Source of the DNA: Candidatus Omnitrophota bacterium
GTDB taxonomy: Bacteria; Omnitrophota; Gorgyraeia; Gygaellales; Profunditerraquicolaceae
Length of the DNA stretch: 64,000 nucleotides
Direction: 5' to 3'
Assembly (NCBI GenBank): GCA_035402765.1
Contig: DAONDX010000002.1
Coordinates: 65,173 to 129,172 of the forward strand
Shown here: positions 3,104-32,096 of the stretch, one piece after another
How the letters are laid out: each line of letters opens with the position of its first letter
How positions within the stretch are numbered: position 1 is the first letter of the stretch
Position numbers and translations under genes: made by a program
The notes under the pieces: model-generated
Told to the model about the DNA's origin: nothing
What the model saw: the letters and a program-made list of their open reading frames with translations, nothing else
Databases searched by the model: none

Positions 3104-4377
3104 CCGGGAATGAACGCTTTCTTACGCAACAGGTGATGATAACCCAAAGCAAACCTATGAGCCTCATCGCGGATGCGGCGAATCAAATTTAAAGCCGTCT
3201 TCTTTCTAAGTAAAACCGCAGAATGAACACCGGGTTGCACACTGTAAATATTTTCTTTTTCCTTAGCGATACTCACCAGCGGAATATGTAAATTTAAGGC
3301 TTCCAGCTCCTGCGCCGCCGTTAAAATATGCCCTCTGCCTCCATCAATCAGCAATAGATCCGGCAAGGCTTTCTGCTCTGCTAATAGTCGAGTATAGCGC
3401 CGGCGCACCACCTCAGCAAGCATTTTGTAATCATCGATCCCGGAGAAACTTTTTATGCGGAACCGGCGGTAATTATTCTTATCCGGCTGGCCGTTATAAA
3501 AGCTGACCATCGACCCGACCGCCTGTTTACCCGCCAGGTTAGAGATATCAAACCCTTCGATTCTGACCGGCAGTGTTTTTAAATTTAAACTCGCCTTAAG
3601 CAGCTCTAACTCATTTTTATAATTAGCCTGATCCGGGGGGCCGGACATTTTAGACAAAATATTAATTTGATCGCGGATTCTGGCTGCCGCTTCAAAATCA
3701 CCGGCGGCGGATTTTTCCTGCATGGATCTGGCCAGCTTGCGCATCAACAAATCCTGCTTGCCTTCTAAAATTAAAATAACATTATCGATAATCTGCCGGT
3801 AGTCATGGCTGTTGATGCGGCCGATACAAGGCGCCGGGCAAAGGTTGATCTTATGGTAAATACAGCTTTGTTTGGGCAGGCGCAGACATGAGCGGTAAGG
3901 AAAATAGCGGCGGATAATGACCAGGGCATTTTTCAAAAGTTTGCTGTTGGTGTAAGGACCCAGGTATTTGGCGCCGGGGCGGTTTTTCTTACGCGTTATT
4001 TGAATTACAGGAAATTCTTCCTGCCAGATACTGACTAAAGGATAGCTCTTATCATCTTTGAGAGAAATATTATATTGGGGGTTAAACTCATGGATAAGCT
4101 TAAACTCCAGCAATAAAGCCATCGCCTCATTAGGAGCCAGCCTGAATTCCACATCCGCCACCTTGGCCATCAAGGCTTGAGTTTTACTGGGCAAGTCGGG
4201 CCCCAGATAATTAAGCAGGCGCTTCTTTAATGAATTAGCTTTGCCGACATAAAGCACCCGGCGCAGGGAATCGCGCATTAAATAAACACCCGGCGCCTCT
4301 GGAAAAGATAAGATTTTTTTTCTTAATTCCGGCAGTTGTTCCATAGGGATGGTTTTGCATTTCTCCGACCTAACCAT
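3100..4377 (-). CDS. uvrC: UvrC-like excinuclease: GIY-YIG plus UvrC endonuclease core, no C-terminal (HhH)2 domain
   Basis: 425 aa. GIY-YIG block GVYLMRDSLRRVLYVGKANSLKKRLLNYL. Central UvrC-family region and DEAHRFA near the C-terminus, then stop. The real start may be the internal MEQLPELRKK. Confidence 0.7.
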   Translation of the reverse strand: MVRSEKCKTIPMEQLPELRKKILSFPEAPGVYLMRDSLRRVLYVGKANSLKKRLLNYLGPDLPSKTQALMAKVADVEFRLAPNEAMALLLEFKLIHEFNPQYNISLKDDKSYPLVSIWQEEFPVIQITRKKNRPGAKYLGPYTNSKLLKNALVIIRRYFPYRSCLRLPKQSCIYHKINLCPAPCIGRINSHDYRQIIDNVILILEGKQDLLMRKLARSMQEKSAAGDFEAAARIRDQINILSKMSGPPDQANYKNELELLKASLNLKTLPVRIEGFDISNLAGKQAVGSMVSFYNGQPDKNNYRRFRIKSFSGIDDYKMLAEVVRRRYTRLLAEQKALPDLLLIDGGRGHILTAAQELEALNLHIPLVSIAKEKENIYSVQPGVHSAVLLRKKTALNLIRRIRDEAHRFALGYHHLLRKKAFIPG

Positions 4378-14096: not shown

Positions 14097-14172
14097 GGGG
14101 CTGTAGCTCAGCTGGGAGAGCACTTGCATGGCATGCAAGGGGTCAGGAGTTCAATCCTCCTCAGCTCCACCA
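14097..14172 (+). tRNA. tRNA-Ala (anticodon GGC), 3' CCA encoded
   Basis: Hand-folded cloverleaf. Acceptor GGGGCTG/CAGCTCC with G3:U70 Ala identity pair. D arm GCTC/GAGC. Anticodon loop AT-GGC-AT. T arm AGGAG-TTCAATC-CTCCT. Terminal CCA. Confidence 0.9.
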
Positions 14173-14262: not shown

Positions 14263-14345
14263 GCTGGAGTGGTGGAATGGCATACACGTCGGTCTCAAAA
14301 ACCGATGGGGGCAACTCCGTGAGGGTTCAACTCCCTCCTCCAGCA
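14263..14345 (+). tRNA. tRNA-Leu (anticodon CAA), class II long variable arm, CCA not encoded
   Basis: Acceptor GCTGGAG/CTCCAGC, discriminator A. Anticodon stem TCGGT/ACCGA, loop CT-CAA-AA. 15-nt variable arm. T arm GAGGG-TTCAACT-CCCTC. Confidence 0.85.
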
Positions 14346-20087: not shown

Positions 20088-21002
20088 TTAAACTCCCAGA
20101 TAAATATGCTTGGTAATTAATTCTGCCGGAGTAACATCAAAAGCCGGATAATACGCTTTAACTTCTTTGGGCGCCAGACGTAAACCCTGGTAAATCTTTA
20201 ATTCATCATCCGGCCGGATCTCAATTCTAATTTCTTGGCCGGTTTTTAATTTTGAGGCCGGCGGGCAAATCACATAAAAAGGAATCTTAAAATATTTGGC
20301 TACCACCGCGATCTGATAAGTGCCGATTTTATTGGCAATGTCACCGTTTTGGGTTAAGTGATCGGCGCCGACGATGATTTTAGTGACTTTACCTAATGAT
20401 AATAAATAAGCCACCATATTATCCGTAATAATCGTCACTTCAAACCCGGCGCGCATGATCTCCCAGGCAGTCAGGCGCGAACCCTGCAAATACGGACGCG
20501 TTTCCGTAGTATAGAAACTGATCTTTTTACCCTGCTCTTTGGCCAGTTGAGCGATTAACGGCATTAACCCGCTGATGTTACAATGTGTGAGAATTACGTC
20601 GCCGTCTTTAAGCAAATCCGCGGTTGCCTGTGCCTGTTGGATTCTTTTACCTTTAAGCATCTCCAAGAAACCCAGGATACTTTTTTCTAAAGGTGCGCCG
20701 CTTTTTTCCATTCCCAAAACCATATCGGTTAAGAACTTAAAAGACAGCGTTGGCCGGGTAGCATTGATCGCCTCAGCCACCTTGGCTAAATCTTTATTCT
20801 GGCGATGGCTTAAGATAAAGGTATACATGACTAAAAGCACCTGGCCCACGGCGCGGGTCTTCATCTCCTTAATCGCCCGGCAAGCCTGGAGATAATTCTT
20901 AGCCTTAATATAGGTAAGCTTCTGGGGGAGTTTAGTCTCATCCAGAATATAAATGGTATTGCCTTTTAATTGTATCGGCCAAAATAATGGAGAAAAGTTC
21001 AT
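20088..21002 (-). CDS. mtnA: eIF-2B alpha/beta/delta family protein, probable 5-methylthioribose-1-phosphate / 5-deoxyribose-1-phosphate isomerase (MtnA-like)
   Basis: 304 aa. eIF2B/MtnA fold signature (ILTHCN...GADHLTQNGD, TAWEIMRAGFEVTIITDN). Directly abuts the aldolase gene; stop and start are adjacent. Confidence 0.7.
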   Translation of the reverse strand: MNFSPLFWPIQLKGNTIYILDETKLPQKLTYIKAKNYLQACRAIKEMKTRAVGQVLLVMYTFILSHRQNKDLAKVAEAINATRPTLSFKFLTDMVLGMEKSGAPLEKSILGFLEMLKGKRIQQAQATADLLKDGDVILTHCNISGLMPLIAQLAKEQGKKISFYTTETRPYLQGSRLTAWEIMRAGFEVTIITDNMVAYLLSLGKVTKIIVGADHLTQNGDIANKIGTYQIAVVAKYFKIPFYVICPPASKLKTGQEIRIEIRPDDELKIYQGLRLAPKEVKAYYPAFDVTPAELITKHIYLGV

Positions 21003-21013
21003 GGTTTTGTTAT

Positions 21014-21082
21014 TTGCGGGCGGCTTGGGTGTTTTCGCAGCGCGTCAGCGCTAGAAAATACCCAGGACAGGACCCGCAAAAT
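21014..21082. repeat. Structured intergenic repeat, copy 1 (imperfect long inverted repeat around GCAGCGCGTCAGCGCTAG core)
   Basis: GCGGGCGGCTTGGGTGTTTTC-gcagcgcgtcagcgctag-GAAAATACCCAGGACAGGACCCGC. Near-identical copies at 22113-22182 and 28013-28090. Confidence 0.8.
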
Positions 21083-21086
21083 TGAT

Positions 21087-21881
21087 CTATTTACCCTCTA
21101 GCTTCTTTACCAACGCCAGCGCAATTTTAATTAAATTGCCTTCGGCCATATAATAAAGCGGATTCATAAAACCCATTTCACCGGTAACCACATTATCACT
21201 AACGGCCAGTATTGAACAAGCCTTGATATTATAGGTCTGACAAATCGTCAAAAGCGTTGAAGAAACCATGTCCACGGCTCTGGCGCCTTCCTTGCGCTTA
21301 GCTTCCACAATTTCGCGGGTCTCCCGCAGTAAAGCATCCGTAGTCCAGGCTTTGCCCCGGTGCACCCTTAAACCCATGCCGGTGGCAATCTCAAATAAAA
21401 GATCAGAGAGATTTTTATTACTCGCCGTCTTAAAATCTTTATCCACATAATACGGAGTAACTCCGTCGCCGCGGATAATTTCATCCACGATAAATAAATC
21501 CCCGATTTTAATATCCTCATCCAATGATCCGCAGGTACCCACGCGGACAATGTTCTGAATTCCGGCATTACACATTACTTCGGTAGTAATTGATGTATCC
21601 GTAGAGAATCTTCCGCCGTTAATCCCGGTGACCTTAATCCCTTCATAAGTTCCGGTGTACATAGTATATTCCATAAAGGAAAAATTCTTCATGGGATTTT
21701 CCAGTTTTTTCATTAAAACATCCAGGCGGTCGCGCGGCCCCGGTACAATCGCATACTTGCCTACATCCTGCGGCCTAAGCTGGACCATTGCCGTTAAATC
21801 TTTCCCTGTCAAATGAACTGCTTTTTGCATTTCCATATTAACTATTCCTCTCCTTAAATGAGCGGACAACTTACGGAGCAA
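21087..21881 (-). CDS. Purine/5'-methylthioadenosine/5'-deoxyadenosine nucleoside phosphorylase (PNP/UDP family 1)
   Basis: 264 aa. DeoD-like blocks (YTGTYEGIKVTGINGG; VRVGTCGSL; phosphate-binding region). True start may be an internal Met (MEMQK/MQKAV). Confidence 0.75.
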   Translation of the reverse strand: MLRKLSAHLRRGIVNMEMQKAVHLTGKDLTAMVQLRPQDVGKYAIVPGPRDRLDVLMKKLENPMKNFSFMEYTMYTGTYEGIKVTGINGGRFSTDTSITTEVMCNAGIQNIVRVGTCGSLDEDIKIGDLFIVDEIIRGDGVTPYYVDKDFKTASNKNLSDLLFEIATGMGLRVHRGKAWTTDALLRETREIVEAKRKEGARAVDMVSSTLLTICQTYNIKACSILAVSDNVVTGEMGFMNPLYYMAEGNLIKIALALVKKLEGK

Positions 21882-22112
21882 CGCAGTTGCGACGTAAGTT
21901 GTAGCCCGCCAGGTTTTATTGGCGGACGTCCGCGAATTTATCCCGCCGAAATACCAAAACTCTAGAGAGTTTTGGTATTGCTTCTGAGGCGGGACCTTCC
22001 CTATTTGTTATTTAGCGGGCTCTACCACTGTCCCCGCCGTTCCACCGATAATCAAATTTAAAAATTTTACCATAACTTAAAATAAAAACGTCCCTTAGTA
22101 ATTATTAAGATT
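21882..22112 (-). promoter_or_regulatory. Long structured leader / intergenic region upstream of the nucleoside phosphorylase gene
   Basis: 230 bp with no credible ORF. Contains perfect palindrome CCAAAACTCTAGAGAGTTTTGG. Hairpin CAACTTACGgagcaacgcagttgcgaCGTAAGTTG. GC-rich paired segments (CCCGCCAGG...CGGACGTCCGCG). Confidence 0.3.
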
Positions 22113-22182
22113 TTTGCGGGTGGCTTGGGTGTTTTCGCAGCGCGTCAGCGCTAGAAAATACCCAAGACAGGCCCCGCAAAAA
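22113..22182. repeat. Structured intergenic repeat, copy 2
   Basis: GATTTTTGCGGGTGGCTTGGGTGTTTTC-gcagcgcgtcagcgctag-GAAAATACCCAAGACAGGCCCCGCAAAAATC. Outer 12-bp arms are perfect reverse complements. Confidence 0.8.
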
Positions 22183-22184
22183 TC

Positions 22185-23096
22185 TTAAAGAGCAAACAGC
22201 TTTGCTAAATTCCCCCCCAGAATATTCTCCTTCTCCTCCTGGGTCAAATCCAAATCCTTAACCGCCTTAATACCTGCGGCAATATCCTGCTTAGCCGGCC
22301 AATCGCTGCCCCACAGAATACGCCGGGGCCCCATTAAATCTAAACTTAATAAAAAGTTAGCGCGGGTGGTGTCTCCGCTGGTATCCACATAAATATTTTT
22401 AAAATAATCCGACGGCAAACCTTGCAGATCTTTGACAAAATTCATCTTGCGCAGCATCTGATAGGTCGCATCAAAGCGCTGTTTTAGATAACAGATCGCC
22501 CCGCCGAAATAGGCAAAGATAAATCTGGTCCTGGGGAACTGCCTCAACACATCCGACATTAAAAGCTTGCCGGCTGAAATCGTAGTATCAAAAATATATT
22601 CAACTACCGGGGTAAGCAGCGGGTCCTTAACCCGTTCATAACCAATCGGGTTAACAATCTGGGAGTGCACAAAAATCGGCAGGCCTTTTTCTTCCGCCAG
22701 TTTATACACCGGTAAAAACATCTTATCATCTAAATATATCCCGTTATAGCTGGAAGCCAGAGAGACCGCTTTAAAACCTAATTCTTCGGTTACGCGTTTT
22801 ATTTCATCTACCACATCAATAGAATTATCAAAAGGAAGGATCGCAGCTCCGATAAATCTTTCCGGATAAGCCTTTAAAATCTTTCCCACATTATCATTAA
22901 ACAGATGGGCCACCTGGCTGATACTGCCTAATTTTAAATGCGCATCAGAAGTCGGATAGCTTAATACCGCCCGGTCAATACCGGCCTCATCCATCATCTT
23001 AAGCTGGGCCTCAATATCCCCCCAACCCTTATGGAAAAAGTGGGCATTAGAAATTATTTCATCCGGAAGCCAGTGGGAATGTGCGTCAATTAACAT
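22185..23096 (-). CDS. Amidohydrolase-2 family metal-dependent hydrolase/decarboxylase (ACMSD-like)
   Basis: 303 aa. N-terminal MLIDAHSHW metal-binding His pair. Later HS..V and D..W motifs typical of PF04909. Confidence 0.7.
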   Translation of the reverse strand: MLIDAHSHWLPDEIISNAHFFHKGWGDIEAQLKMMDEAGIDRAVLSYPTSDAHLKLGSISQVAHLFNDNVGKILKAYPERFIGAAILPFDNSIDVVDEIKRVTEELGFKAVSLASSYNGIYLDDKMFLPVYKLAEEKGLPIFVHSQIVNPIGYERVKDPLLTPVVEYIFDTTISAGKLLMSDVLRQFPRTRFIFAYFGGAICYLKQRFDATYQMLRKMNFVKDLQGLPSDYFKNIYVDTSGDTTRANFLLSLDLMGPRRILWGSDWPAKQDIAAGIKAVKDLDLTQEEKENILGGNLAKLFAL

Positions 23097-23527
23097 TAAT
23101 GCTCCGTGCTCTTTAGTATACGCTGGGTCATCTCTTGTTCATACATCGCCTTGATCCTAAAAAATTCTTTACGGCCAAGCTCTTTGACGATGGATTTCTC
23201 AATTGCCCGCAGCTTAACATCCAGAAAAATAAACTCGGTATTTTTCCTTAAACCTTGGCACTTTAGATCCGAACAAGCCTTTTCTTTAACGGCAATATAA
23301 GCCTGAAAATCACCTACCATCTTCTCAAGCTGGGCTTTTTCATGCGGCAGATACGCGCCCATCAGCTCATTTTTAATTTCCCTTAAGATATCTTGATCAA
23401 TGTCAACTTGGGTAAACTTGCGTTCAAACTTATCAAACGCCTCTTTGGTGGTTTTGTACAGCCAGATAAGATAACGTTTCTTTAGGTTCTTAATATCCTG
23501 ATTATCCATATTTACCTCCTTGCCCAC
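23096..23527 (-). CDS. Hypothetical cytoplasmic protein
   Basis: 143 aa ORF, charged/helical. No recognisable motif. Start overlaps the stop of the upstream gene. Confidence 0.35.
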   Translation of the reverse strand: MGKEVNMDNQDIKNLKKRYLIWLYKTTKEAFDKFERKFTQVDIDQDILREIKNELMGAYLPHEKAQLEKMVGDFQAYIAVKEKACSDLKCQGLRKNTEFIFLDVKLRAIEKSIVKELGRKEFFRIKAMYEQEMTQRILKSTEH

Positions 23528-23602
23528 GGGGGCAACACCGACGCAATACCGCTTAGCGTCGGGTGATTCCGATTAGCGCCAGGCGTTAAACTACAATTGT
23601 AT

Positions 23603-24214
23603 TTATTTCTTTACCAATTCCACCGTATCAAAATAAAGGGTACCTTTGGTTCCGGGAAGCGGCTCAAATTGAAACATCCTGATCGGAAAATCCATTACTC
23701 CGTTTTGATCGGCATCCTGCGGCTGCCAATCATCACGCACGATGAATTTATCAAAACTAACCACTACTTTTTTCCAGCCGGCAAAATCGTCATCGGCGAT
23801 AAACCGCCAAATCTCACCCCCGGTATCTTTGATATCAAAAGCGATCTTAGCTTTTGAATTTGTCCCGTAGACATAAAAAGATACCGCGCTGTATTCTTCC
23901 CATTTGATATCGGAAGGCTTGACCGCCCAGTTAGCATTCTTGGCATCTAACCCGGCGCCGCGGGCAATATACATATAACCACCGCTGACCGCATCATAAT
24001 CAACCTTCAAAGCCTGTTTACCGCTATTTTTAATATCGCTGGCTCCGATCACCTGGATACTTGAACCATTGCCGGCGCCAAAATCCACGGTGCCGTCAGC
24101 GCCGCCGGAAACCACAATTTCAAAATCATCAAGCAAGACATTGCTCTCGGCTGCCCAACCGGCGCCCGAGATTAATAAAACTAAAGCTGCAGTTAAAAAT
24201 CCTGTTTTTTTCAT
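23603..24214 (-). CDS. Secreted protein of unknown function
   Basis: 203 aa. Clear signal peptide (MKKTGFLTAALVLLISGAGWA). Beta-rich composition. Confidence 0.45.
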   Translation of the reverse strand: MKKTGFLTAALVLLISGAGWAAESNVLLDDFEIVVSGGADGTVDFGAGNGSSIQVIGASDIKNSGKQALKVDYDAVSGGYMYIARGAGLDAKNANWAVKPSDIKWEEYSAVSFYVYGTNSKAKIAFDIKDTGGEIWRFIADDDFAGWKKVVVSFDKFIVRDDWQPQDADQNGVMDFPIRMFQFEPLPGTKGTLYFDTVELVKK

Positions 24215-24264
24215 TCCAATTTTCCCTTTCTAATATTTAACTTCTTTCCAGTTGCAATTTAGGC

Positions 24265-25071
24265 TTATTTTCCCGGATGCTGCTGTTTATAAGGTATCAC
24301 CGGAGCAACCCAGGGCGTTTGCTGGTTAATTACCGCGATCTCTAAAGGGCAGACATTAGCCGGGACGGTTAAAGCAAAACGCACCGCGTCTTCAATGGCC
24401 TGCGTGCTCATCAAACGCGAGGTATCCGTACTGATATTCTGAAGTTTACCGGTTAAGTCCGTATCGGTAACCCCGGGTAATATCGAAGTAACTTTAATCC
24501 CGTGGTCGCGCAATTCCCAAAACAAACCCTTGGAAAATGCCCTTAAGCCTACCTTAAGCGAGCTGTAAACGATAAAGGTCCTGGGCAGCGGGTCACATAA
24601 GGTCGAACCGGAGACCATATTAATGATCGCTCCGCTTTTATTCTTGATCATATCATTAATCACCAGGCGGATCATCCGCACATAGCCCAAATAATTAGTA
24701 TGCGCTAATTTCTCGAAATCCTCGATCGGCTGATCCTGAAAAGGATATTGGCTGGATACCCCGGCATTATTGATCAGGATATCGATCTGGCCAAACTTCT
24801 CTTTGGCGCTTTTGACTAAATTTTCCAGATCTTCTAATTTTGTCACATCGCAAGCTACCGGCAAAACCTGGACTTTAAATTTTTTGGCGATCTCATCGGC
24901 AGTCTCTTTTAAAGGGCCCAGATTACGCGCCCCGATCACTAAATTAACCCCAAGACTGGCGGCGGTACAGGCCAAGGCTTTGCCAATTCCACGGCTGGCA
25001 CCGGTAACAATTGCTGTTTTTCCTTTTAATTCTAAACTCATACCTCTCCTCCTTATGTACGTACATAACAC
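24265..25071 (-). CDS. Short-chain dehydrogenase/reductase (candidate polyketide ketoreductase)
   Basis: 268 aa. TGASRGIG Rossmann motif, NNAG, catalytic YxxxK (YSSLK). First gene-distal member of the PKS operon. Confidence 0.85.
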   Translation of the reverse strand: MLCTYIRRRGMSLELKGKTAIVTGASRGIGKALACTAASLGVNLVIGARNLGPLKETADEIAKKFKVQVLPVACDVTKLEDLENLVKSAKEKFGQIDILINNAGVSSQYPFQDQPIEDFEKLAHTNYLGYVRMIRLVINDMIKNKSGAIINMVSGSTLCDPLPRTFIVYSSLKVGLRAFSKGLFWELRDHGIKVTSILPGVTDTDLTGKLQNISTDTSRLMSTQAIEDAVRFALTVPANVCPLEIAVINQQTPWVAPVIPYKQQHPGK

Positions 25072-25108
25072 CGGCGCAGATCAAATAGGCGCCGGGTGAC
25101 TCTACCAA

Positions 25109-26242
25109 TTAGCCCCGGGTGTATATTTTATTTCCGACTACCCGGCTAAACATTAATAAAATCAGCAGCCCCGAACCAAACACTAAAAATCCTAAACCAA
25201 AACTTTTCTGCATGATCAAACCGCCCAAGCTCACTCCTATGCCGCCGGCAATAAAACGCACGGCGCTGTTTAGGCTTGCGGCTTCATTGAGAAGCTCCGC
25301 CGGCAGATCCGTAAGCATAGTGGATAAACCCACATGATTAAAAGTCCAGCCCATGCCCCAAACAATCATCACGACAGCCAATAACCCCACCGGCAACTTG
25401 ATCAAGAGCAGAAAAACACAGACGATCATCGAAAGAATGCCTAAATTTACCACTTTTAACCGGCCCAGGGAATCTGCCAGATGGCCTCCCCAAACTTCCC
25501 CGAATATCCCGGCTAAGCTGGTCAGAGTGATCAGCATGCTGATTAAAAACTGGTTTAAATTTAATTGCGTCGAGAAATAAACTCCCAGCCATTGCTGCAC
25601 AGCATGATAAATCAAACTTATCAGGAAAATATAGCCGAAAATTTTAATGACTTTTTTATTTTTAAACGCCTCGAAATAACCCAGGCGGAAATTTCCGGCA
25701 TCCGCTTTAAAACTGGGCAAATAAAAATACATAAAAATCCAAAGTATAAATCCACAGAGCGCCGGAATGAGAAAAATCAACCTCCAGGAAATTATCCCGC
25801 TTAAAAACAGGCCCAATAAAGAAGCTATGAATGTCGAGCCAAAAAATAAACCAAGATAACGGCCGCGCTTAGCCGGCTTTAGGTGTTTGGCAATCACGAT
25901 CAAGCCCAGAGGAATAACCGAGGCTCCAAAAAATCCCATCATAAACCGGGCCGCAAAAAGCACAGAGATATTACCCGCTGCGGCTGCCAAAAGATTAGCC
26001 AGGGAAAACAAGAAGATGCAGAATAATTCAACCTTGCGGGCATCAAATAAGCGTACCAACGGACCATACAGCAGCGCCGCCAGCCCGTAAGGAAGCATAT
26101 ACAACCAGATAATTTTGCCGACCACAAATTGAGAAAGAGCAAAATCCGCGGCAATTGAAGGAACCAGCGCAGCAGAGGCTGCCACATTAAACGATAGAAC
26201 CGCTCCTTCTAAACAAAGGATAATAAAGGTAAGTGCGCTCAC
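25109..26242 (-). CDS. MFS transporter (candidate product exporter)
   Basis: 377 aa, ~12 predicted TM helices. MFS loop motif (LFDARKV). 4-bp overlap with the upstream aromatase/cyclase gene. Confidence 0.8.
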   Translation of the reverse strand: MSALTFIILCLEGAVLSFNVAASAALVPSIAADFALSQFVVGKIIWLYMLPYGLAALLYGPLVRLFDARKVELFCIFLFSLANLLAAAAGNISVLFAARFMMGFFGASVIPLGLIVIAKHLKPAKRGRYLGLFFGSTFIASLLGLFLSGIISWRLIFLIPALCGFILWIFMYFYLPSFKADAGNFRLGYFEAFKNKKVIKIFGYIFLISLIYHAVQQWLGVYFSTQLNLNQFLISMLITLTSLAGIFGEVWGGHLADSLGRLKVVNLGILSMIVCVFLLLIKLPVGLLAVVMIVWGMGWTFNHVGLSTMLTDLPAELLNEAASLNSAVRFIAGGIGVSLGGLIMQKSFGLGFLVFGSGLLILLMFSRVVGNKIYTRG

Positions 26243-26679
26243 TTAGCCGCTTCTTTTTCAATAATCGCTTTAAAGATCTTCAGGTTATGCTGCGAGCCTT
26301 CGTTAATAAAACCTTCGATCTGTTGGTCATTAAATTTGGCTTTGGCATCCATATGAAAATGCTGAATCCAAGTTAATTCAATGCCCCCGGTAACCGGCGT
26401 GTAGAGCCAAATAATCTTCATATACTCAAAAGGAAACAGCGGATCTTCACGCTGCGAATAAGTAAAAAACTTATCTTTAAACAAAAGCCTCCAGGATTGC
26501 CAGGTTTTATCATCCTCATCGGTTAGACGAAAAGTAATTTTATTCGCCTCTTTCTTGACCAGCTCGGCTTTTTTATATTCCGTGCCGAATAATTCCGTCC
26601 AGCGCGGGATATCATTGGAAATATCAAAAACTAAATCGTAAGGCGCCTTAATCACTATCGAATTACAGGTATGTCCCAT
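26239..26679 (-). CDS. Type II PKS aromatase/cyclase of the SRPBCC family (TcmN N-terminal / WhiE-ORFVI / ZhuI-like)
   Basis: Track ORF 26239-26886 trimmed to the internal start MGHTCNSIVIKAPYDLVFDISND (ATG 26679-26677), preceded by GGGGGGATTAA Shine-Dalgarno. Pattern NSIVI.AP.DLV.D..ND...W..LF.EY..AE......FRL..DED..W.SW......Y..W.Y....GG..L.W.Q.F.M is the ARO/CYC polyketide_cyc2 signature as I recall it. Confidence 0.7.
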   Translation of the reverse strand: MGHTCNSIVIKAPYDLVFDISNDIPRWTELFGTEYKKAELVKKEANKITFRLTDEDDKTWQSWRLLFKDKFFTYSQREDPLFPFEYMKIIWLYTPVTGGIELTWIQHFHMDAKAKFNDQQIEGFINEGSQHNLKIFKAIIEKEAAK

Positions 26680-26892
26680 TTTAATCCCCCCAGTATTTTG
26701 CTCTTTTAAAATTAGCTGTTTACGCGGGATGACTTGGCTTGATTCTGAGCGGGGCGTGGAGGCAAGGAGTGGGCATGGTTCCGTCACTTTTATGTCAGAG
26801 AGCGACGCCAGCCGACCCGAGCGAAGTTTTGCCACGCTGGGGTAAAACGAGCGCCCCCGCGAAGAACAAGACAAGACAGACCGCAATAATTA
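26680..26892 (-). promoter_or_regulatory. About 210-bp GC-rich structured intercistronic leader inside the PKS operon
   Basis: No conserved coding signal (the track's N-terminal extension MRSVLSCSSRGRS... is low-complexity). Several local hairpins (e.g. AGTTTTGCCacgctgGGGTAAAACg). GC content visibly above the flanking genes. Confidence 0.3.
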
Positions 26893-27693
26893 TTAATCTA
26901 AAAGAGCAACTACCCTTGCCCAAGCCGCTCCGGTATTTTTGATGCGGATAGGCATACAAAGCACCTTAAATCCAAAATCCGGCAAGCTTTCTAAATTTGC
27001 CAACCGCTCGATATGGATAAATTCTTTTTTTCTTCCGTAGAAATGCGCCGGATAAAATGTTTTAGGGTCTTTGGTCTTTAAGAATTCACTGAGCATAAAT
27101 CTGTAGGGCCGGTCAATCCCCATCGTATCTACGCCAAAGATCTTGACCCCCTGGCCTAATAAATATTCGATGGCGCAAGGGCTGACTCCGGGATAATCGG
27201 CAAAATATTTAGGGCCGCCGTATAACTTATCGGCTCCGGTCTGCAGTAATACGATATCTAAAGGTTTAAGCTGGTAATTGATCTTGGTTAAAGCTTCGCA
27301 AAGGTCCTGTTCCTTGATTACTTCATTTGGTTTTTTATGCCGCAGGTCTAATTTTACTCCGGGCTGATAACAATATTCCAGGGGTATCTCATCGGCGGTT
27401 TTAGAGGCGCGATTTTCAGATTGAGAACCGTAATGGAAGGAATAATCCAGGTGCGTACCGATGTGCACCGGAGCATGGACAATCTCCAAAGAGAGAAATT
27501 CTTCATCGGGCAGCTCTTCTTTTTTCACGATGCGGCCGCCCAATGCGTATTTAATCTTGCCCAAAAGAGTTTTGCCCATGATTACCCGGTTAAACTTTTC
27601 TACCCCGGCTTTATGGGTTACTCTTTCGATAGCCACTTTGTGTACCTCAAAAGCGGTCTCATCAATGGGTAAGCTTAAATCTACTATCTTCAC
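26893..27693 (-). CDS. Cyclase-family protein (PF04199, kynurenine-formamidase fold)
   Basis: 266 aa. Diagnostic HxGTHxDxxxH motif (VHIGTHLDYSFH). Confidence 0.7.
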   Translation of the reverse strand: MKIVDLSLPIDETAFEVHKVAIERVTHKAGVEKFNRVIMGKTLLGKIKYALGGRIVKKEELPDEEFLSLEIVHAPVHIGTHLDYSFHYGSQSENRASKTADEIPLEYCYQPGVKLDLRHKKPNEVIKEQDLCEALTKINYQLKPLDIVLLQTGADKLYGGPKYFADYPGVSPCAIEYLLGQGVKIFGVDTMGIDRPYRFMLSEFLKTKDPKTFYPAHFYGRKKEFIHIERLANLESLPDFGFKVLCMPIRIKNTGAAWARVVALLD

Positions 27694-27761
27694 CCCGCAC
27701 CTTCTCCTTTTTTTATGCTACCCCCTACCTTCTAATATTTAAATTATAGAAGGTGCGGGGT

Positions 27762-27998
27762 TCATTTTGCTAATTTGCTCTCAATATTAGCGGTGATATC
27801 ATTAATTGTGGAATTTTTGGTAATCTCTTTAGGGCTCAGCTTGACCCCGAAAGATTTCTCTAAAGCAATTACCGATTCCACCATCTCCGTAGAATCTACG
27901 CCGATACTGTCGATCAGAGTAGAACCATCTTTTAATTCCTCGATCTTTACTTTTAAGAGGTTGCTTAACACTTCTTTTACTTTTGTTTTTGTATCCAT
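27762..27998 (-). CDS. Acyl carrier protein
   Basis: 78 aa, acidic. Phosphopantetheine-attachment DS motif in GVDSTEMVESVIALE. Confidence 0.8.
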   Translation of the reverse strand: MDTKTKVKEVLSNLLKVKIEELKDGSTLIDSIGVDSTEMVESVIALEKSFGVKLSPKEITKNSTINDITANIESKLAK

Positions 27999-28012
27999 CT
28001 ATCCTCCAACAT

Positions 28013-28090
28013 TATTATTTACGGGTGGCTTGGGTGTTTTCGTAGCGCGTCAGCGCAAGAAAATACCCAAGACAGGACCCGTAAATTTTA
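28013..28090. repeat. Structured intergenic repeat, copy 3
   Basis: TTATTTACGGGTGGCTTGGGTGTTTTC-gtagcgcgtcagcgcaag-GAAAATACCCAAGACAGGACCCGTAAATT. Outer arm TTTACGGG/CCCGTAAA carries G>A and C>T changes that preserve pairing relative to copies 1 and 2. Confidence 0.8.
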
Positions 28091-29548
28091 TATCTGTACT
28101 TCCCCTTTAGTCGCCGCCGCTTCCCACTTATTCAATCCGTCAATAACATCTTGAATACAAAGCTTGGCCAGCGGATCAAAATCGCTTTCCATGATCCGGT
28201 TGATCCGGCCGGGCTTTGAGAAAAATTCACGCATACACCAGGAACCTAAACGGCCCAGGTCTTCGGTGGTCAAATGATCCGTAGGGATTACCGGATGCAG
28301 AAAATCCCAAGTGCTAAAATCAACTTTTTTCGGATCAATCCACCCCTTCTTTAAAGCAATCCTCCACATCGGTGAATTGGGAGCCGGAGTGACATAACCT
28401 ACCCACAGGATATCCGGGTCCACCATGTCGGTGAACTCAAAACGCTGTTTGACGATCTCTTCGGTATCGTAATCAAACCCCATCATAATATCGGCAACAA
28501 TAGCAATATCATTTTTACGCAAGATCTCGATAGTCTTCTTAATCTGCTCGATGGTTGTGCCTTTAGCGATTCTTTTGAGCTCAGATTGTGTCGTTACTTC
28601 AATTCCAAAAACTCCCATAAACAGGCCTGCCTCTTTCATCAGCGGCAGAATTGATTCACAGTTAACCCAATCCACAGCCCTGCCTAAAGCCACCCATTTC
28701 GTTTCGATCTTTTTAGCCAACTTTAATTCACAGAACTTTTTAACCCTGGCAGCATCAACAATGAAATTATCATCCTGGATTACCACTACCTTGACTTTGT
28801 ATTTATTCTGCAAAAGTTCCAGCTCCTCAATTACCCGCTCCGGGCTTTTAGCGCGCCATTTTAAAAAATCTGACGGAGAACGCGGGTCAAATTGATCCCA
28901 TTCATAACAAAAAGTACAGGCCGAAGGACAACCCCGGGAGGTAACCATATCGACAAACGGCTTCCAATAAGTATGCCCGGAATATTTATCCATGGGGAAC
29001 AAGTCATAGGCCGGTAAAGGAAGCTTATCCAAATCTGTCATCAAGGGCTTATGCGGCCCCATCACGATCTGCCCATTAATGCGCGAGGTGACTCCGCCGA
29101 CATCTTTGAGCGGTTTATTTTTATCGATCGCTTCAATTAAATCCCCAAAAGATTCCTCTTCCCCCATCACGATAAAATCAACTTCCGGAATTTCTTCTAA
29201 GGTCGGAATGGGCATGGCGGAATACCAAAGCCCGCCCAAAATGATCTTTATTTTAGGCAGCGCTTTTTTAATTCCGATCGCCGCATCTTTAAAATGACGC
29301 AAAACTCCGTATCCGCCGTAGCCGTGCAGCTGCTCACCCATCACCACAATATCAGGGTTTATATTTTTTACCTGTTGGATCAGCTGCTCCATGGGTATCT
29401 GTTCGGCTTTAGCGTCGATTACCGCTACATCTTTATAACCTTTCTCCCGGATATAAGCAGCCCAATGCGCATATAACTGATTCGGAGACCGGTGAATTCC
29501 ATGCGTGGCCCAGGCGCCGACTTTAGGCATCACAAATAGTATTTTCAT
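28088..29548 (-). CDS. Class B (cobalamin-binding) radical SAM enzyme
   Basis: 486 aa. N-terminal B12-binding Rossmann-like domain (MKILFVMPKVGAWATHG...). Radical SAM CxxxCxxC (RGCPSACTFCYE). Confidence 0.85.
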   Translation of the reverse strand: MKILFVMPKVGAWATHGIHRSPNQLYAHWAAYIREKGYKDVAVIDAKAEQIPMEQLIQQVKNINPDIVVMGEQLHGYGGYGVLRHFKDAAIGIKKALPKIKIILGGLWYSAMPIPTLEEIPEVDFIVMGEEESFGDLIEAIDKNKPLKDVGGVTSRINGQIVMGPHKPLMTDLDKLPLPAYDLFPMDKYSGHTYWKPFVDMVTSRGCPSACTFCYEWDQFDPRSPSDFLKWRAKSPERVIEELELLQNKYKVKVVVIQDDNFIVDAARVKKFCELKLAKKIETKWVALGRAVDWVNCESILPLMKEAGLFMGVFGIEVTTQSELKRIAKGTTIEQIKKTIEILRKNDIAIVADIMMGFDYDTEEIVKQRFEFTDMVDPDILWVGYVTPAPNSPMWRIALKKGWIDPKKVDFSTWDFLHPVIPTDHLTTEDLGRLGSWCMREFFSKPGRINRIMESDFDPLAKLCIQDVIDGLNKWEAAATKGEVQI

Positions 29549-29583
29549 TTAAAACCCTCCATTAGTTTAAAATATAATTAGCT

Positions 29584-30816
29584 TTAAGCTGCTTTTTCAA
29601 CTACGAGCACGGAATTAATTCCGCCGCGGCCGCGTGAAATAATTAAAGATTTGTTTACCTTATATTCTTTGGCCTCGCCAGCCACATAATTTAAGCTGTT
29701 TTGAGCCGGCTTTTCTAAATTTAATGTCGGAGCAACTAAACTATGTTCCATGGTTAAAAGCGCAATGATCATATCTAAGGCGCCGGAAGCGCCCAGTAAA
29801 TTCCCAAACATCGACTTTGGACAGCTGGCCGGGATTTTCTTCAAGTTTTTGCCAAAGACTAACTCCAGGGCTTTTACCTCGGAATTATCCCAAAGTTCAA
29901 CTGCCAAGCCGTCTAAACTAATGTAACCGATCTCCTCAGGCAACGCTTTAGCATCATCCAGGGCCATTTTAATTGCCCGGGCTAATTCTTTTCCGTCGCT
30001 GGCGCAATTAATCCGATCTACTCCGTCACAGGCAGTACCATAGCCGGAAATTAACCCTAAAATGTTGGCGTTACGGCTCCGGGCGCGCTGAATACTCTCC
30101 ATCACTACGATCCCGGCGCCTTCACCGATTACAAAACCGTTGCGCTCCCGGTCAAAGGGCCGATAAGCTCCGGCCGGATCATGATTATTTTTAGAAAGCG
30201 CCCCGTAAGTATTACAACACAATAAAGCATACGGAGAAACCGGCGCTTCCATCCCTCCGCCTAAGATCATATTAAGTTTATTCTTCGCTAAAACTTTTCG
30301 GGCATAACCCAGCGCCATAAGCGAACTGGCCCGGTCACTGACCACGGTCTTGCTGAAACCTTTAATCCCGTAATAAATTGAAACCTGGCCTTGGGGAGCC
30401 GCCGGGAACCAGGCGCTGGCCATATAAGGCGAAACACCTTCCCGGCCTTCCAGGTATAAATCCCTTAATTCCGTCTCAGCGTAAAGCCAGCCGCCGATAG
30501 CATTACCTAAAAAAATCCCCACCAGATTCGGATCTTCGTTCTTGATATCGATCCCGGCATCCTGCAGCGCTAACTCCGCGGCCACCAGCGCCATATGCGA
30601 AAATGCGTCAATTTTCTTAAGCAGTCTTTCGGAGATGTGGCTATACTTTTCTAAATCATCTATTTGGCCGGCAATATGAGAAGGATAAAGGCTGGCATCA
30701 AAACGCCTGATCTCTTTAATAAAAGAACGGCCGCTTTTAATGTTGGCCCAAAACTGCCGCTTACCGATTCCCGACGGGCTGACTACGCCGATACCTGTAA
30801 TTGCAATCTTTTCCAT
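29584..30816 (-). CDS. Ketosynthase-beta / chain-length-factor-like protein (KS fold, catalytic triad absent)
   Basis: Start reassigned to MEKIAITGIGVVSPSG: ATG 30816-30814 overlaps KS-alpha stop as TAATG. Thiolase/KS fold throughout. Active-site Cys position reads VVSDRASSL (no Cys, no Gln). Both His positions replaced (YISLDGLAV; MFGNLLGASG). Confidence 0.75.
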   Translation of the reverse strand: MEKIAITGIGVVSPSGIGKRQFWANIKSGRSFIKEIRRFDASLYPSHIAGQIDDLEKYSHISERLLKKIDAFSHMALVAAELALQDAGIDIKNEDPNLVGIFLGNAIGGWLYAETELRDLYLEGREGVSPYMASAWFPAAPQGQVSIYYGIKGFSKTVVSDRASSLMALGYARKVLAKNKLNMILGGGMEAPVSPYALLCCNTYGALSKNNHDPAGAYRPFDRERNGFVIGEGAGIVVMESIQRARSRNANILGLISGYGTACDGVDRINCASDGKELARAIKMALDDAKALPEEIGYISLDGLAVELWDNSEVKALELVFGKNLKKIPASCPKSMFGNLLGASGALDMIIALLTMEHSLVAPTLNLEKPAQNSLNYVAGEAKEYKVNKSLIISRGRGGINSVLVVEKAA

Positions 30817-32096
30817 TATCCACCAAACCTTTTTAAAATAAGGGAAGAGTGTATCCCTGAAAAACCGCTGCTGGTTTTTAAAATAATATCGACCTTTTTT
30901 TGAATGGCCTGATTGGGAATATAATACAGATCGCACTGGGGGTCTTTTTCCTCCTGGTTGATCGTCGGAGGAAGAATATTTTTTTCAAAAATCAGACTAG
31001 CCATCGTCAGCTCAATGGCATTGGCCGCCGCCAGAGGATGGCCGATCATGGATTTAAAAGAACTGATCGGCAGCTTATAGGCATATTGGCCAAAAATTGT
31101 TTTATAAGCGCTGGTTTCAAAAATATCATTCATTTTCGTGCTTGAGCCGTGCGCATTAATATAATCAATTTCCGATGGTTTAACCTGGGCATCTTTTAAA
31201 GCCAAACTAATGCAAATTTCCATGGCCCGGCCGTCAGAAGGCAAATCCGTCATATGAAAAGCATTGCAGCTGGTGCCAAAACCTAAAACCTCGCAGTAAA
31301 TCGGAGCATTGCGTTTTAAGGCGTGATTTAATTCTTCCAGCACCAGAAGCCCGGCCCCTTCCCCTAAAACAAAACCATCCCTTTTATTATCAAAGGGCCG
31401 GGAGGCTTTTTGCGGTTCGTCATTATGCACGGATAAAACATTGACCACATCAAAAGCCCCGAAGGTAATCGGAGTAAGCGGGGCTTCCGCAGCACCGCAA
31501 ATCATTACATCCATCTCCGCATCCTGAATGCTCTCTAAACCAAAACCTAAAGAATCGGTACCGGCGGTACATCCGGTCGAAATAGTATTACAGTTTCCTT
31601 TTAATCCATAACGGGCGCTTAACTCAATGGAAGGAGTATTAAACATCGCCGCGTCATAAAGATCCGGGCGCACCAAAGCCGGGTTAATCGGCCGCTTGCC
31701 GTCATCGGTAACCAAAGCAAATTCTTCCTCCATATATTTTGTCCCGCAGATAGCATTAGCCAAACAAACACCCACCCGCGTTACATCTTCTTTCGAAAAA
31801 TCCAGCTGACTGTCTTCTATCGCCATTTTTCCGGCGGCTACGCCAAACTGCACGTAACGGTCCATGCGCATAGCCTCTTCATGAGTTAGACCCAATTTAA
31901 AAGGATCAAAATCCCTGACCTCGGCGGCAATCTTAGTATTAAAAACCGAAACATCAAAACCATCCACTAAACGGATCCCGGATTTACCGCTGGAAAAACC
32001 TTCCCAGGCATTCTTTTTCCCGATACCGTTGGGGGAAATTACTCCCACACCGGTAATGACTACTCTACGTTTAACCACTTTTGTTATTCCTTTCAT
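30816..32096 (-). CDS. Ketosynthase-alpha (FabF/KAS II-like, intact Cys-His-His)
   Basis: 426 aa. Active-site Cys (TISTGCTAGTDSLG). His pair (YINAHGSST; KSMIGHPLAAA). N-terminal RVVITGVGVISPNG. Confidence 0.85.
   Translation of the reverse strand: MKGITKVVKRRVVITGVGVISPNGIGKKNAWEGFSSGKSGIRLVDGFDVSVFNTKIAAEVRDFDPFKLGLTHEEAMRMDRYVQFGVAAGKMAIEDSQLDFSKEDVTRVGVCLANAICGTKYMEEEFALVTDDGKRPINPALVRPDLYDAAMFNTPSIELSARYGLKGNCNTISTGCTAGTDSLGFGLESIQDAEMDVMICGAAEAPLTPITFGAFDVVNVLSVHNDEPQKASRPFDNKRDGFVLGEGAGLLVLEELNHALKRNAPIYCEVLGFGTSCNAFHMTDLPSDGRAMEICISLALKDAQVKPSEIDYINAHGSSTKMNDIFETSAYKTIFGQYAYKLPISSFKSMIGHPLAAANAIELTMASLIFEKNILPPTINQEEKDPQCDLYYIPNQAIQKKVDIILKTSSGFSGIHSSLILKRFGG

Follow-up and report, generated by a model that had tools for sequence, protein, structure and literature searches.

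A Family of Covarying Palindromic Hairpins in Omnitrophota Genomes That Looks Like REP-Type Selfish DNA

Introduction

Why would a bacterium keep the same long hairpin in several short spacers between unrelated genes? The question is raised by a stretch of 64,000 nucleotides, hereafter the window, from Candidatus Omnitrophota bacterium (GenBank assembly GCA_035402765.1, contig DAONDX010000002.1, forward-strand positions 65,173 to 129,172), in which an intergenic element of about 76 nt occurs three times. The original prediction, made from the letters of the sequence, described a structured repeat and offered three roles for it: a repetitive extragenic palindrome (REP)-like element, an RNase processing or stability site, or a binding site for a regulator. 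We report here that the three repeats are members of a previously uncatalogued family that is present in many Omnitrophota genomes and has a related form in soil actinobacteria. The element looks like selfish REP-like DNA, not like a gene-control signal.

Three Copies of a Long Hairpin in the Window

Element copies are written on the + strand of the window throughout. Scores refer to a covariance model, R1, which was built from 82 copies.

21009-21084 (hairpin proper 21014-21082), + strand: copy 1; R1 87.2 bits, E = 1.6e-19
22105-22188, + strand: copy 2 with its extended 16-bp outer stem; R1 100.4 bits over 22109-22184
28014-28089, + strand: copy 3, the variant with an A:T pair in the outer stem; R1 95.5 bits

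The window holds exactly these three copies: a full scan with the covariance model, with filters off, found no fourth one, and a repeat survey showed the element to be the sole sizeable repeat family of the window. The three places had been correctly predicted, since a 50-nt core matches there with at most two mismatches (1, 0, and 2 at 21022-21071, 22122-22171, and 28027-28076, respectively), for a chance expectation of 0. In fold prediction, every copy forms a long hairpin whose z-score against shuffled sequences is between -5.5 and -10.2 (-42.0 kcal/mol and z = -6.4 for copy 1, -52.5 kcal/mol and z = -10.2 for copy 2), and the hairpin can form on either strand. The outer arms are TTTGCGGG / CCCGCAAA in copy 1, TTTTTGCGGG / CCCGCAAAAA in copy 2, and TTTACGGG / CCCGTAAA in copy 3, where a G:C pair is replaced by A:T through a double change. 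These arms are as first quoted, and the stem of copy 2 is longer than had been noticed (TTAAGATTTTTGCGGG / CCCGCAAAAATCTTAA, 16 bp, spanning 22105-22188).

The layout of the element, from the outside inward, comprises an outer stem of 5-16 bp that is conserved only at its inner YGGG/CCCR, an asymmetric internal loop (5'-TGR / 3'-RCAGGA), a middle stem, a small G-A-rich internal loop, and an apical stem-loop. In copy 2, these parts are located as follows.

22111-22120, + strand: outer stem, 5' arm (TTTTTGCGGG), pairing with 22173-22182; inner CGGG conserved, rest variable but complementary
22121-22123, + strand: internal loop, 5' side, TGG (TGA in some copies)
22124-22166, + strand: middle stem and variable apical stem-loop, with the apex at 22137-22153
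22167-22172, + strand: internal loop, 3' side, ACAGGC (family consensus RCAGGA)
22173-22182, + strand: outer stem, 3' arm (CCCGCAAAAA), for which pair counts are given below

The middle stem of copy 2 pairs 22124-22136 with 22154-22166 over 13 bp, including one fixed G.T.

A Family Spread over Many Omnitrophota Genomes

All loci (designated by L numbers where they must be told apart) were retrieved with patterns that fix part of the sequence, and, beyond this retrieval, the scans covered the stretches around copies. Genes outside the window were called by our own open reading frame (ORF) heuristics, except in L229-L233. An exact search for both halves of the middle stem, with one genome per species, returned 86 stretches. 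All but six of them were in metagenome-assembled genomes (MAGs) of Omnitrophota, from at least 25 species, some of these MAGs being labelled 'uncultured Planctomycetales'; the other six were chance matches in coding DNA. A single MAG, JAPLLY01, carries at least 16 exact-core copies. The covariance model recovered 90 full and 9 diverged copies in 610 kb, and at least 96 copies, almost all of them intergenic, were found in the examined DNA of at least 25 Omnitrophota genomes. The element is thus neither restricted to the three copies first noticed nor missing from relatives, in which it is conserved. The window is 99.75% identical to a contig of GCA_964598445.1, and its copies, including copy 1, are unchanged among four population samples of the same species. 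A Logan contig of the window's species (L233, position 1) begins in the middle of copy 1, which suggests that the repeat breaks short-read assemblies.

A related form was found in metagenomes by a search with only the loop and the pairs that close it (CGGGTGRC, 36-56 nt, GRCAGGACCCG), which gave at least 120 stretches. By a strand-symmetric criterion, long hairpins of the same layout were present in 64 of the 124 distinct matches among the metagenome matches listed, and 53 of these 64 came from soil and rhizosphere contigs with a GC content of 62-76%. As a control, 21 loop-pattern matches in viral contigs included no hairpin (0/21), which calibrates the chance rate of this search. The loop common to this wider form is CGGG-UGR-C / G-RCAGGA-CCCG. 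The taxonomy of the high-GC set is taken from one contig, of Solirubrobacterales, whose S1 protein shares 91-94% identity with proteins under that name. The main family was not found in viral contigs, and a plasmid collection searched with one high-GC member gave no match.

The Rfam scan suggested for the element matched it to no family. At the gathering threshold, Rfam 15 reported only two tRNA genes in the window (14097-14169 and 14263-14345, + strand). A relaxed E-value on the element gave only generic hairpin or miRNA noise, and a scan of 16 metagenome loci gave only a c-di-AMP riboswitch located elsewhere in the loci. Literature searches for Omnitrophota palindromes and for the motif sequence returned only irrelevant or primer matches, and the literature collection consulted contained nothing on how REPs affect translation.

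Covariation of the Helices around a Constant Loop

The claim that compensatory changes hold the hairpin together was confirmed by strong covariation over 82-115 copies. Outer-stem pair 8-79 is GC in 49 copies and AU in 31, with 2 unpaired, and pair 7-80 is AU in 39, UA in 22, and CG in 8. The covariation score of the outer stem is 0.162, compared to 0.076 for shuffled and at most 0.057 for slid controls. The middle stem was fixed by the search pattern and, in the main set alone, is uninformative on covariation; in diverged copies, which keep the loop and the GGG/CCC pairs, the middle stems are entirely different yet paired. Among high-GC members, at positions free of selection by the search, outer positions 2-3 are paired in 88% of cases versus 41-49% after shuffling, CG and GC both being common. 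The 5' side of the loop, TGR, is retained in the diverged copies with wholly different stems and in the high-GC metagenome members. Covariation is seen in all three helices, the asymmetric internal loop alone being constant.

These data also bear on the idea of a double-stranded operator or nucleoid site, recognized by a dimeric protein on two conserved half-sites. The conserved halves are indeed inverted repeats, and their sequence is highly conserved within Omnitrophota. However, the stem sequence changes freely provided that pairing holds, a 3-nt asymmetry between the halves is fixed, only one of the strands tolerates G.T, and no common target genes were found, which makes such a site scarcely credible.

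Toward the apex, the element varies in length and sequence, the terminal structure ranging from 16 to about 120 nt, and some copies carry an additional hairpin within the 3' loop. An expanded form of 185 nt (L008 3509-3693 and L010 4525-4709) has the same base and internal loop, topped by a branched structure of about 120 nt with repeated UCGAG motifs and with compensatory changes between two species. In all copies, G-TGG-C or G-TGA-C precedes the middle stem, inside the larger hairpin. Neither half was seen to fold on itself in the predicted folds, and by eye GGGTGGCTTGGGTGTTTTCG and GAAAATACCCAAGACAGGACCC lack self-complementarity. Inspection by eye also led us to reject several known motifs: a kink-turn, in which position 2b would be G and not A; loop E, the hammerhead, and other small ribozymes; a CsrA site, its GGA lying on the wrong strand in most copies; and an internal promoter, for which the spacing is 21.

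Strand Asymmetry

Although both strands can fold, they are not equivalent. G.U pairs and A.C mismatches were counted under strand-symmetric selection. Read on the strand that bears the conserved loop, the middle stem contains, family-wide, 58 G.U pairs versus 9 A.C mismatches. The loop-bearing strand is the more stable one in 56 of 62 cases, with a mean difference of 5.3 kcal/mol, only about 1.5 of which is due to the fixed loops. The Omnitrophota alignment alone allows no strand call from G.U versus A.C beyond the one fixed G.T. With regard to the genes, about 70% of Omnitrophota copies have their loop-bearing strand antisense to the adjacent gene, and of 28 confident high-GC cases, 24 have the gene on the 3' side of the element on the opposite strand. 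Pairing is thus kept on a strand that is usually not mRNA, which argues against a primary role in mRNA stability, processing or coupling; a side effect of the element on mRNA is possible.

The strand asymmetry points to the folding of one DNA strand. Deamination biases would, if anything, place G.T on the other strand. The orientation bias relative to genes may reflect what hosts tolerate, and in coding DNA the complement would encode peptides rich in Pro, Ser or acidic residues and the loop strand Arg-rich ones. GC skew was considered as a proxy for the direction of replication and discarded, since it follows the coding strand in 92% of ORFs.

A strand-specific G.U pattern is also what an independently transcribed small RNA or antisense RNA gene would produce, its conserved loop binding a protein. 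The conserved loop nucleotides, the covarying helices, the optional hairpin in the 3' loop, and the branched expanded form are all typical of structured RNAs. On the other hand, promoter and terminator signals are absent from the copies, those of Omnitrophota are followed on both strands by an A-run and not by a U-run, each genome has many copies in unrelated settings that include rpsA and membrane-protein genes, and no Rfam family matches. A small RNA gene is for these reasons very doubtful. In the window itself, a consensus scan placed neither a promoter nor a terminator on the three copies. No T-run follows them on either strand; a T-run precedes and an A-run follows each on both strands. 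A Rho-independent terminator, which needs a U-run behind the hairpin, was rejected on these grounds, in agreement with the original prediction.

Gain, Loss, Inversion and Insertion

The element comes and goes between related genomes. An empty site was recognized in the window.

26887-26892, no strand assigned: six-nucleotide spacer between the cyclase gene and the next gene, identified from side-by-side sequences

Its counterpart is filled in four relatives, by the main form in L037, L084, and L051 and by a diverged form in L058. At the site of copy 2, L082 has only a truncated 5' remnant, and orthologues of copy 3 are present in L034, L037, and L078. In L030, the site of copy 1 is taken by another repeat. 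This one (L030 1800-1900) is a hairpin of the CGTCATTC...GAATGACG type in the spacer from the PNP-family gene to mtnA, a spacer that is therefore a hot spot for palindromic insertions.

Settled copies can also be turned around. In 21 of 81 orthologous pairs, at no fewer than five sites, the interior is exactly reverse-complemented and the outer stems are unchanged. More generally, outer stems are locus-specific and stable across species, and interiors are common to different loci. The pairing energy of flanks differs only modestly from that of mismatched flanks, every flank being rich in T on the 5' side and in A on the 3' side.

In high-GC hosts, the element also enters genes. In L176, two copies that are 100% identical and in opposite orientation lie in frame at the homologous position of tandem PMT_2-like paralogues, which are 35% identical and read through the element. 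Three contigs (L088, L090, and L150) carry the element in frame within the part of rpsA (S1) that encodes the C-terminal tail; a related genome has no copy in 21.5 kb. In-frame copies within coding sequence were not seen in Omnitrophota, where about half of 78 cases have a stop codon at a distance of 0-11 nt from the conserved CGGG. The neighbours of the element are unrelated genes of housekeeping operons: 69 neighbouring proteins matched 115 Pfam families, none of which was enriched and none a transposase.

Three paralogous genes for small membrane proteins of 137-217 aa without a Pfam match (L080 2406-3014, L057 834-1740, and L064 5178-5791) occupy unrelated places in one MAG, and each is bracketed by an inverted pair composed of a main-type and a diverged element. 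The gene and its bracketing elements may form a unit that duplicates together.

Taken together, these observations weigh on the hypothesis of a cis-acting mRNA hairpin, selected by the host and placed after the stop codon in order to block 3' exonucleases, direct RNase III-type processing or tune termination-reinitiation. Such a role is consistent with the almost exclusively intergenic location in Omnitrophota, with the proximity of stop codons, and with retention at orthologous sites, where the element is more conserved than its flanks. Extended stems take in the stop and last codons, reach to just short of the next ribosome-binding site, and show covariation with the coding arm; moreover, the structure forms on either strand. 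However, about 70% of copies give the mRNA the complement, in which the conserved G.U becomes A.C (58 versus 9 family-wide), the orientation at one site flips between species, and an empty spacer of 6 nt suffices in close relatives. In Solirubrobacterales, the element lies within coding sequence. A stabilizer also needs no loop sequence conserved across phyla, and no Rfam family matches. An mRNA hairpin is thus unlikely. Of the three roles first proposed, the REP-like element comes closest; an RNase processing or stability site, or a regulator site, did not hold up as the reason for its existence, given the mostly antisense pairing strand, the flips, gains and losses, the copies within genes, and the lack of preferred neighbours.

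Y1 Genes and Other Palindromic Families

All ORFs of 86 genome loci and 120 metagenome loci were searched for Y1 transposases with phmmer and a motif scan. Only two Y1 (IS200-like) genes were found, each flanked by its own, different palindromic family. The best NCBIfam match of both proteins is the model for REP-associated tyrosine transposases (RAYTs), with E ~1e-17, below the curated cut-off. The first gene (L037 3409-4092, 227 aa) is flanked by GTAGACC-N5-GGTCTAC inverted doublets at 3340-3400 and 4095-4120; these doublets also occur in L049 (3467-3510) and L082 (2524-5271). This repeat and Y1 unit, which resembles a classical pairing of a RAYT with REP doublets forming hairpins (REPINs), is inserted between the acyl carrier protein (ACP) and cyclase genes that are adjacent in the window. 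The second gene (L070 2238-2834, 198 aa) is flanked by GGGGACGGTTCT...AGAACCGTCCCC hairpins at 2120-2170 and 2815-2835. That repeat has 61 half-sites in 22 loci and a decayed trace at about 22088-22097 of the window; it usually has T-runs after it on both strands, in a terminator-like manner, and often adjoins copies of the element.

A search for a longer parent bounded by the ends of the element in 1.4 Mb found only pairs of separate copies and the 185-nt form. Neither terminal inverted repeats nor target-site duplications were seen, and the repeat is thus not part of a larger insertion sequence (IS) or miniature inverted-repeat transposable element (MITE), an origin that had been considered from the start. 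When target-site duplications were sought by eye, only palindromic flanks such as TTAA or CGCG fitted, and the candidate was dropped.

Genomic Context of the Copies in the Window

The genes next to the three copies are all on the - strand.

20088-21002, - strand: MtnA-like gene (IF-2B family), downstream of copy 1; Pfam PF01008, E = 1e-57
21087-21881, - strand: purine/methylthioadenosine phosphorylase-family gene (PNP_UDP_1), between copies 1 and 2; Pfam PF01048
22185-23096, - strand: amidohydrolase gene (Amidohydro_2), its stop codon abutting copy 2; Pfam PF04909
27762-27998, - strand: acyl-carrier-protein gene (PP-binding), downstream of copy 3; Pfam PF00550
28088-29548, - strand: B12-binding radical SAM gene, its stop codon abutting copy 3; Pfam PF04055 and PF02310

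Pfam bears out the names that these neighbours had been given, and their common direction was confirmed. All three copies start 2-5 nt past the stop codon of the upstream gene (stops at 21087, 22185, and 28088). Copy 1 occupies the spacer of 84 nt that separates the PNP-family gene from the MtnA-like gene, and its written form is antisense to both. The amidohydrolase stop codon, TAA on the - strand, is the last triplet of the copy 2 stem. Copy 3 separates the ACP gene from the B12-radical SAM gene, whose stop codon is at 28088-28090.

This position right behind stop codons, together with the folding strand being complementary to the upstream ORF, recalls attC, and a site for a single-stranded DNA recombination or replication process, such as attC or a single-strand origin, may be considered. 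The substrate would then be the folded bottom strand, with the element serving as a landing pad or signal and not as a parasite. The layout is attC-like, with a stem at the base, an asymmetric spacer that is unpaired, and a second stem below a variable terminal structure (16 to about 120 nt), and interiors are replaced or inverted with the outer stems remaining. However, R boxes (RYYYAAC / GTTRRRY) are lacking, apart from chance occurrences in one subfamily, the flanking genes belong to housekeeping operons and not to cassette arrays, no integrase or recombinase gene recurs nearby, both orientations are seen, and in-frame copies within genes do not fit a cassette boundary. We regard such a site as improbable.

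Other features adjoin the copies. The start of the phosphorylase gene is at about 21836 according to the gene call in L230, a public contig that is 99.75% identical. From there to copy 2 (21837-22104, - strand), the methionine-salvage operon has an untranslated leader of about 270 nt with several perfect hairpins (fold z = -4.9) and no Rfam match, which may represent a leader or riboswitch not yet described. A lipid/polyketide-type gene cluster (24265-32096, - strand) harbours both copy 3 and the empty site; its genes encode two ketosynthases, the B12-binding radical SAM protein, the ACP, a cyclase, a polyketide-cyclase-like protein, an MFS transporter, and a short-chain dehydrogenase.

Discussion

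We consider that the family, with lengths of about 65-80 nt and rarely about 185 nt, probably represents small mobile palindromes, non-autonomous and of the REP, REPIN or Rickettsia palindromic element (RPE) kind, with a probability of roughly 0.6. According to this proposal, the strand written CGGG-UGR-C...G-RCAGGA-CCCG would fold with a locus-specific outer stem, the constant loop, the middle stem, and a variable top. The constant loop and the G-C pairs on either side of it would be read by a trans-acting enzyme able to cut and rejoin folded single-stranded DNA. We infer that transposition proceeds through single-stranded DNA and that this enzyme is most likely an HUH Y1 transposase, like those of the two other palindromic families in the same genomes; the simplest guess for the mobilizer would be a comparable Y1-like enzyme that works on folded single strands. 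Copies would survive where they do least harm, that is, after stop codons in the tight operons of Omnitrophota and in frame in tolerant protein segments of Solirubrobacterales. Once settled, a copy could be inverted, replaced by a variant, partly deleted or lost.

In most of the Solirubrobacterales-type copies (e.g., L091, L111, L136, L147, L176, and L195), a conserved TC dinucleotide, unpaired, lies 3-4 nt 5' of CGGG. It is reminiscent of the CT dinucleotide at which the REP transposase of E. coli reportedly cleaves.

Several observations weigh against mobile DNA of this kind. No transposase of any kind was found beside the element in the 86 genome loci, which extend about 4 kb to either side of the match and represent at least 25 genomes, or in the 120 metagenome loci. 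Target-site duplications and conserved termini were not found either, the outermost arms differing between loci of one genome, and no strain-level polymorphism was seen in the four population samples of the window's species. Orthologous copies are 90% conserved, compared to 81% for the flanking, mostly coding, DNA; for selfish DNA, this needs extra assumptions, such as constraints from recognition or conversion between copies. At two or more sites, the last 15-30 coding nucleotides of the upstream gene, stop codon included, recur in inverted form as the arm distal to that gene, and this coding-derived arm follows the substitutions of the gene between species. We know of no transposition chemistry that accounts for an inverted arm derived from a gene. 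Finally, the active strand of IS200/IS605 elements lies on the lagging-strand template, and the orientation of the element relative to genes would be opposite to this rule if genes follow replication. As a speculation, template switching in palindromes or copying by hairpin transfer could yield both the flips and the coding-derived arms.

We put forward a further possibility only tentatively: the elements may form an undescribed class of strand-specific DNA hairpins in two distant phyla, defined by the loop CGGG-UGR-C / G-RCAGGA-CCCG, read by an enzyme, and having their own mode of movement. The interior would be swapped or inverted between fixed outer stems, and the stem would grow by inverted copying of the end of a gene, which resembles hairpin transfer more than cut-and-paste transposition.

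A defined repeat family, with a covariance model and about 150 members, is added to a phylum known only from metagenomes, and it probably explains some of the contig breaks in such assemblies. A loop common to Omnitrophota and Solirubrobacterales, present in frame even in essential genes (rpsA, for example), implies a conserved recognition machinery, and the element provides a handle for finding it. The family also calls for caution in the search for RNA motifs: covariation, a conserved loop, and an extra hairpin mimic a functional RNA here, where the folding strand is mostly untranscribed. In-place inversion and coding-derived arms are concrete puzzles for the study of how palindromes evolve in bacterial genomes.

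Comparison with Known Systems

Stem, asymmetric loop and stem between genes of a polycistronic message are also found in the RNase III hairpins of phage T7 early mRNA, which consist of a lower stem, an asymmetric loop, and an upper stem, have one orientation, and are not dispersed. In the case of the element, the mRNA usually carries the complement.

Bacterial MITEs, such as the Correia elements of Neisseria, are small, non-autonomous, co-transcribed, and hairpin-folding, with conserved terminal inverted repeats and target-site duplications (TA for Correia). The element is likewise a small, non-autonomous, hairpin-forming repeat, but it differs from MITEs of DDE transposases in that its outermost 4-12 bp vary and its flanks are inverted, not direct, repeats. 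With attC sites, it has in common the layout of the folded strand, the position after a stop codon, and a strand complementary to the ORF. It differs from them in lacking R boxes in most copies and in every high-GC copy, in having no arrays and no nearby integrase, and in occurring in both orientations and within genes.

RPEs, reportedly described by Ogata et al. in 2000 as in-frame palindromic insertions in Rickettsia, are closer. Both are palindromic, about 100 nt in length, dispersed, without a transposase of their own or clear target duplications, and kept at orthologous sites, and both can be inserted in frame in genes (here L176 and the rpsA tail); the resemblance is one of description. 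Unlike RPEs, the copies of Omnitrophota are almost all intergenic. The element also has a conserved loop and in-place inversion, which to our knowledge have not been described for RPEs.

The closest relatives in behaviour are REPs and REPINs (REP and bacterial interspersed mosaic elements of E. coli, GI-GIII of Pseudomonas fluorescens), which are likewise short, imperfect extragenic palindromes, present in tens per genome and vertically kept. REPs carry a GTAG or GTGG head, for which the GTGG/GTGA tetranucleotide 5' of the main stem of the element, lying inside a larger hairpin, is only a candidate counterpart. The same genomes contain the two classical-looking pairs of repeat and Y1 transposase. 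REPINs have two conserved halves around a spacer, form a hairpin, and show frequent compensatory changes (PMC3116915), and the element resembles them in its conserved halves and spacer, its hairpin in single-stranded DNA or RNA, and its compensatory changes. The differences are, however, clear. In the loci searched, from about 25 genomes, no RAYT is flanked by the element, and since its halves are not palindromes it is not a REP doublet. Its constant part is an asymmetric internal loop that persists while all stems change, its outermost stem differs from locus to locus and can be a copy of sequence in the adjoining gene, and its loop motif is common to two phyla. As it departs from REPIN-RAYT systems, DDE MITEs, attC sites, and terminators alike, we file it as a variant of interspersed palindromic repeats with a putative mobilizer. 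In its way of working, the element is most like REPs and REPINs and, in high-GC hosts, also like the in-frame palindromes of the RPE type.

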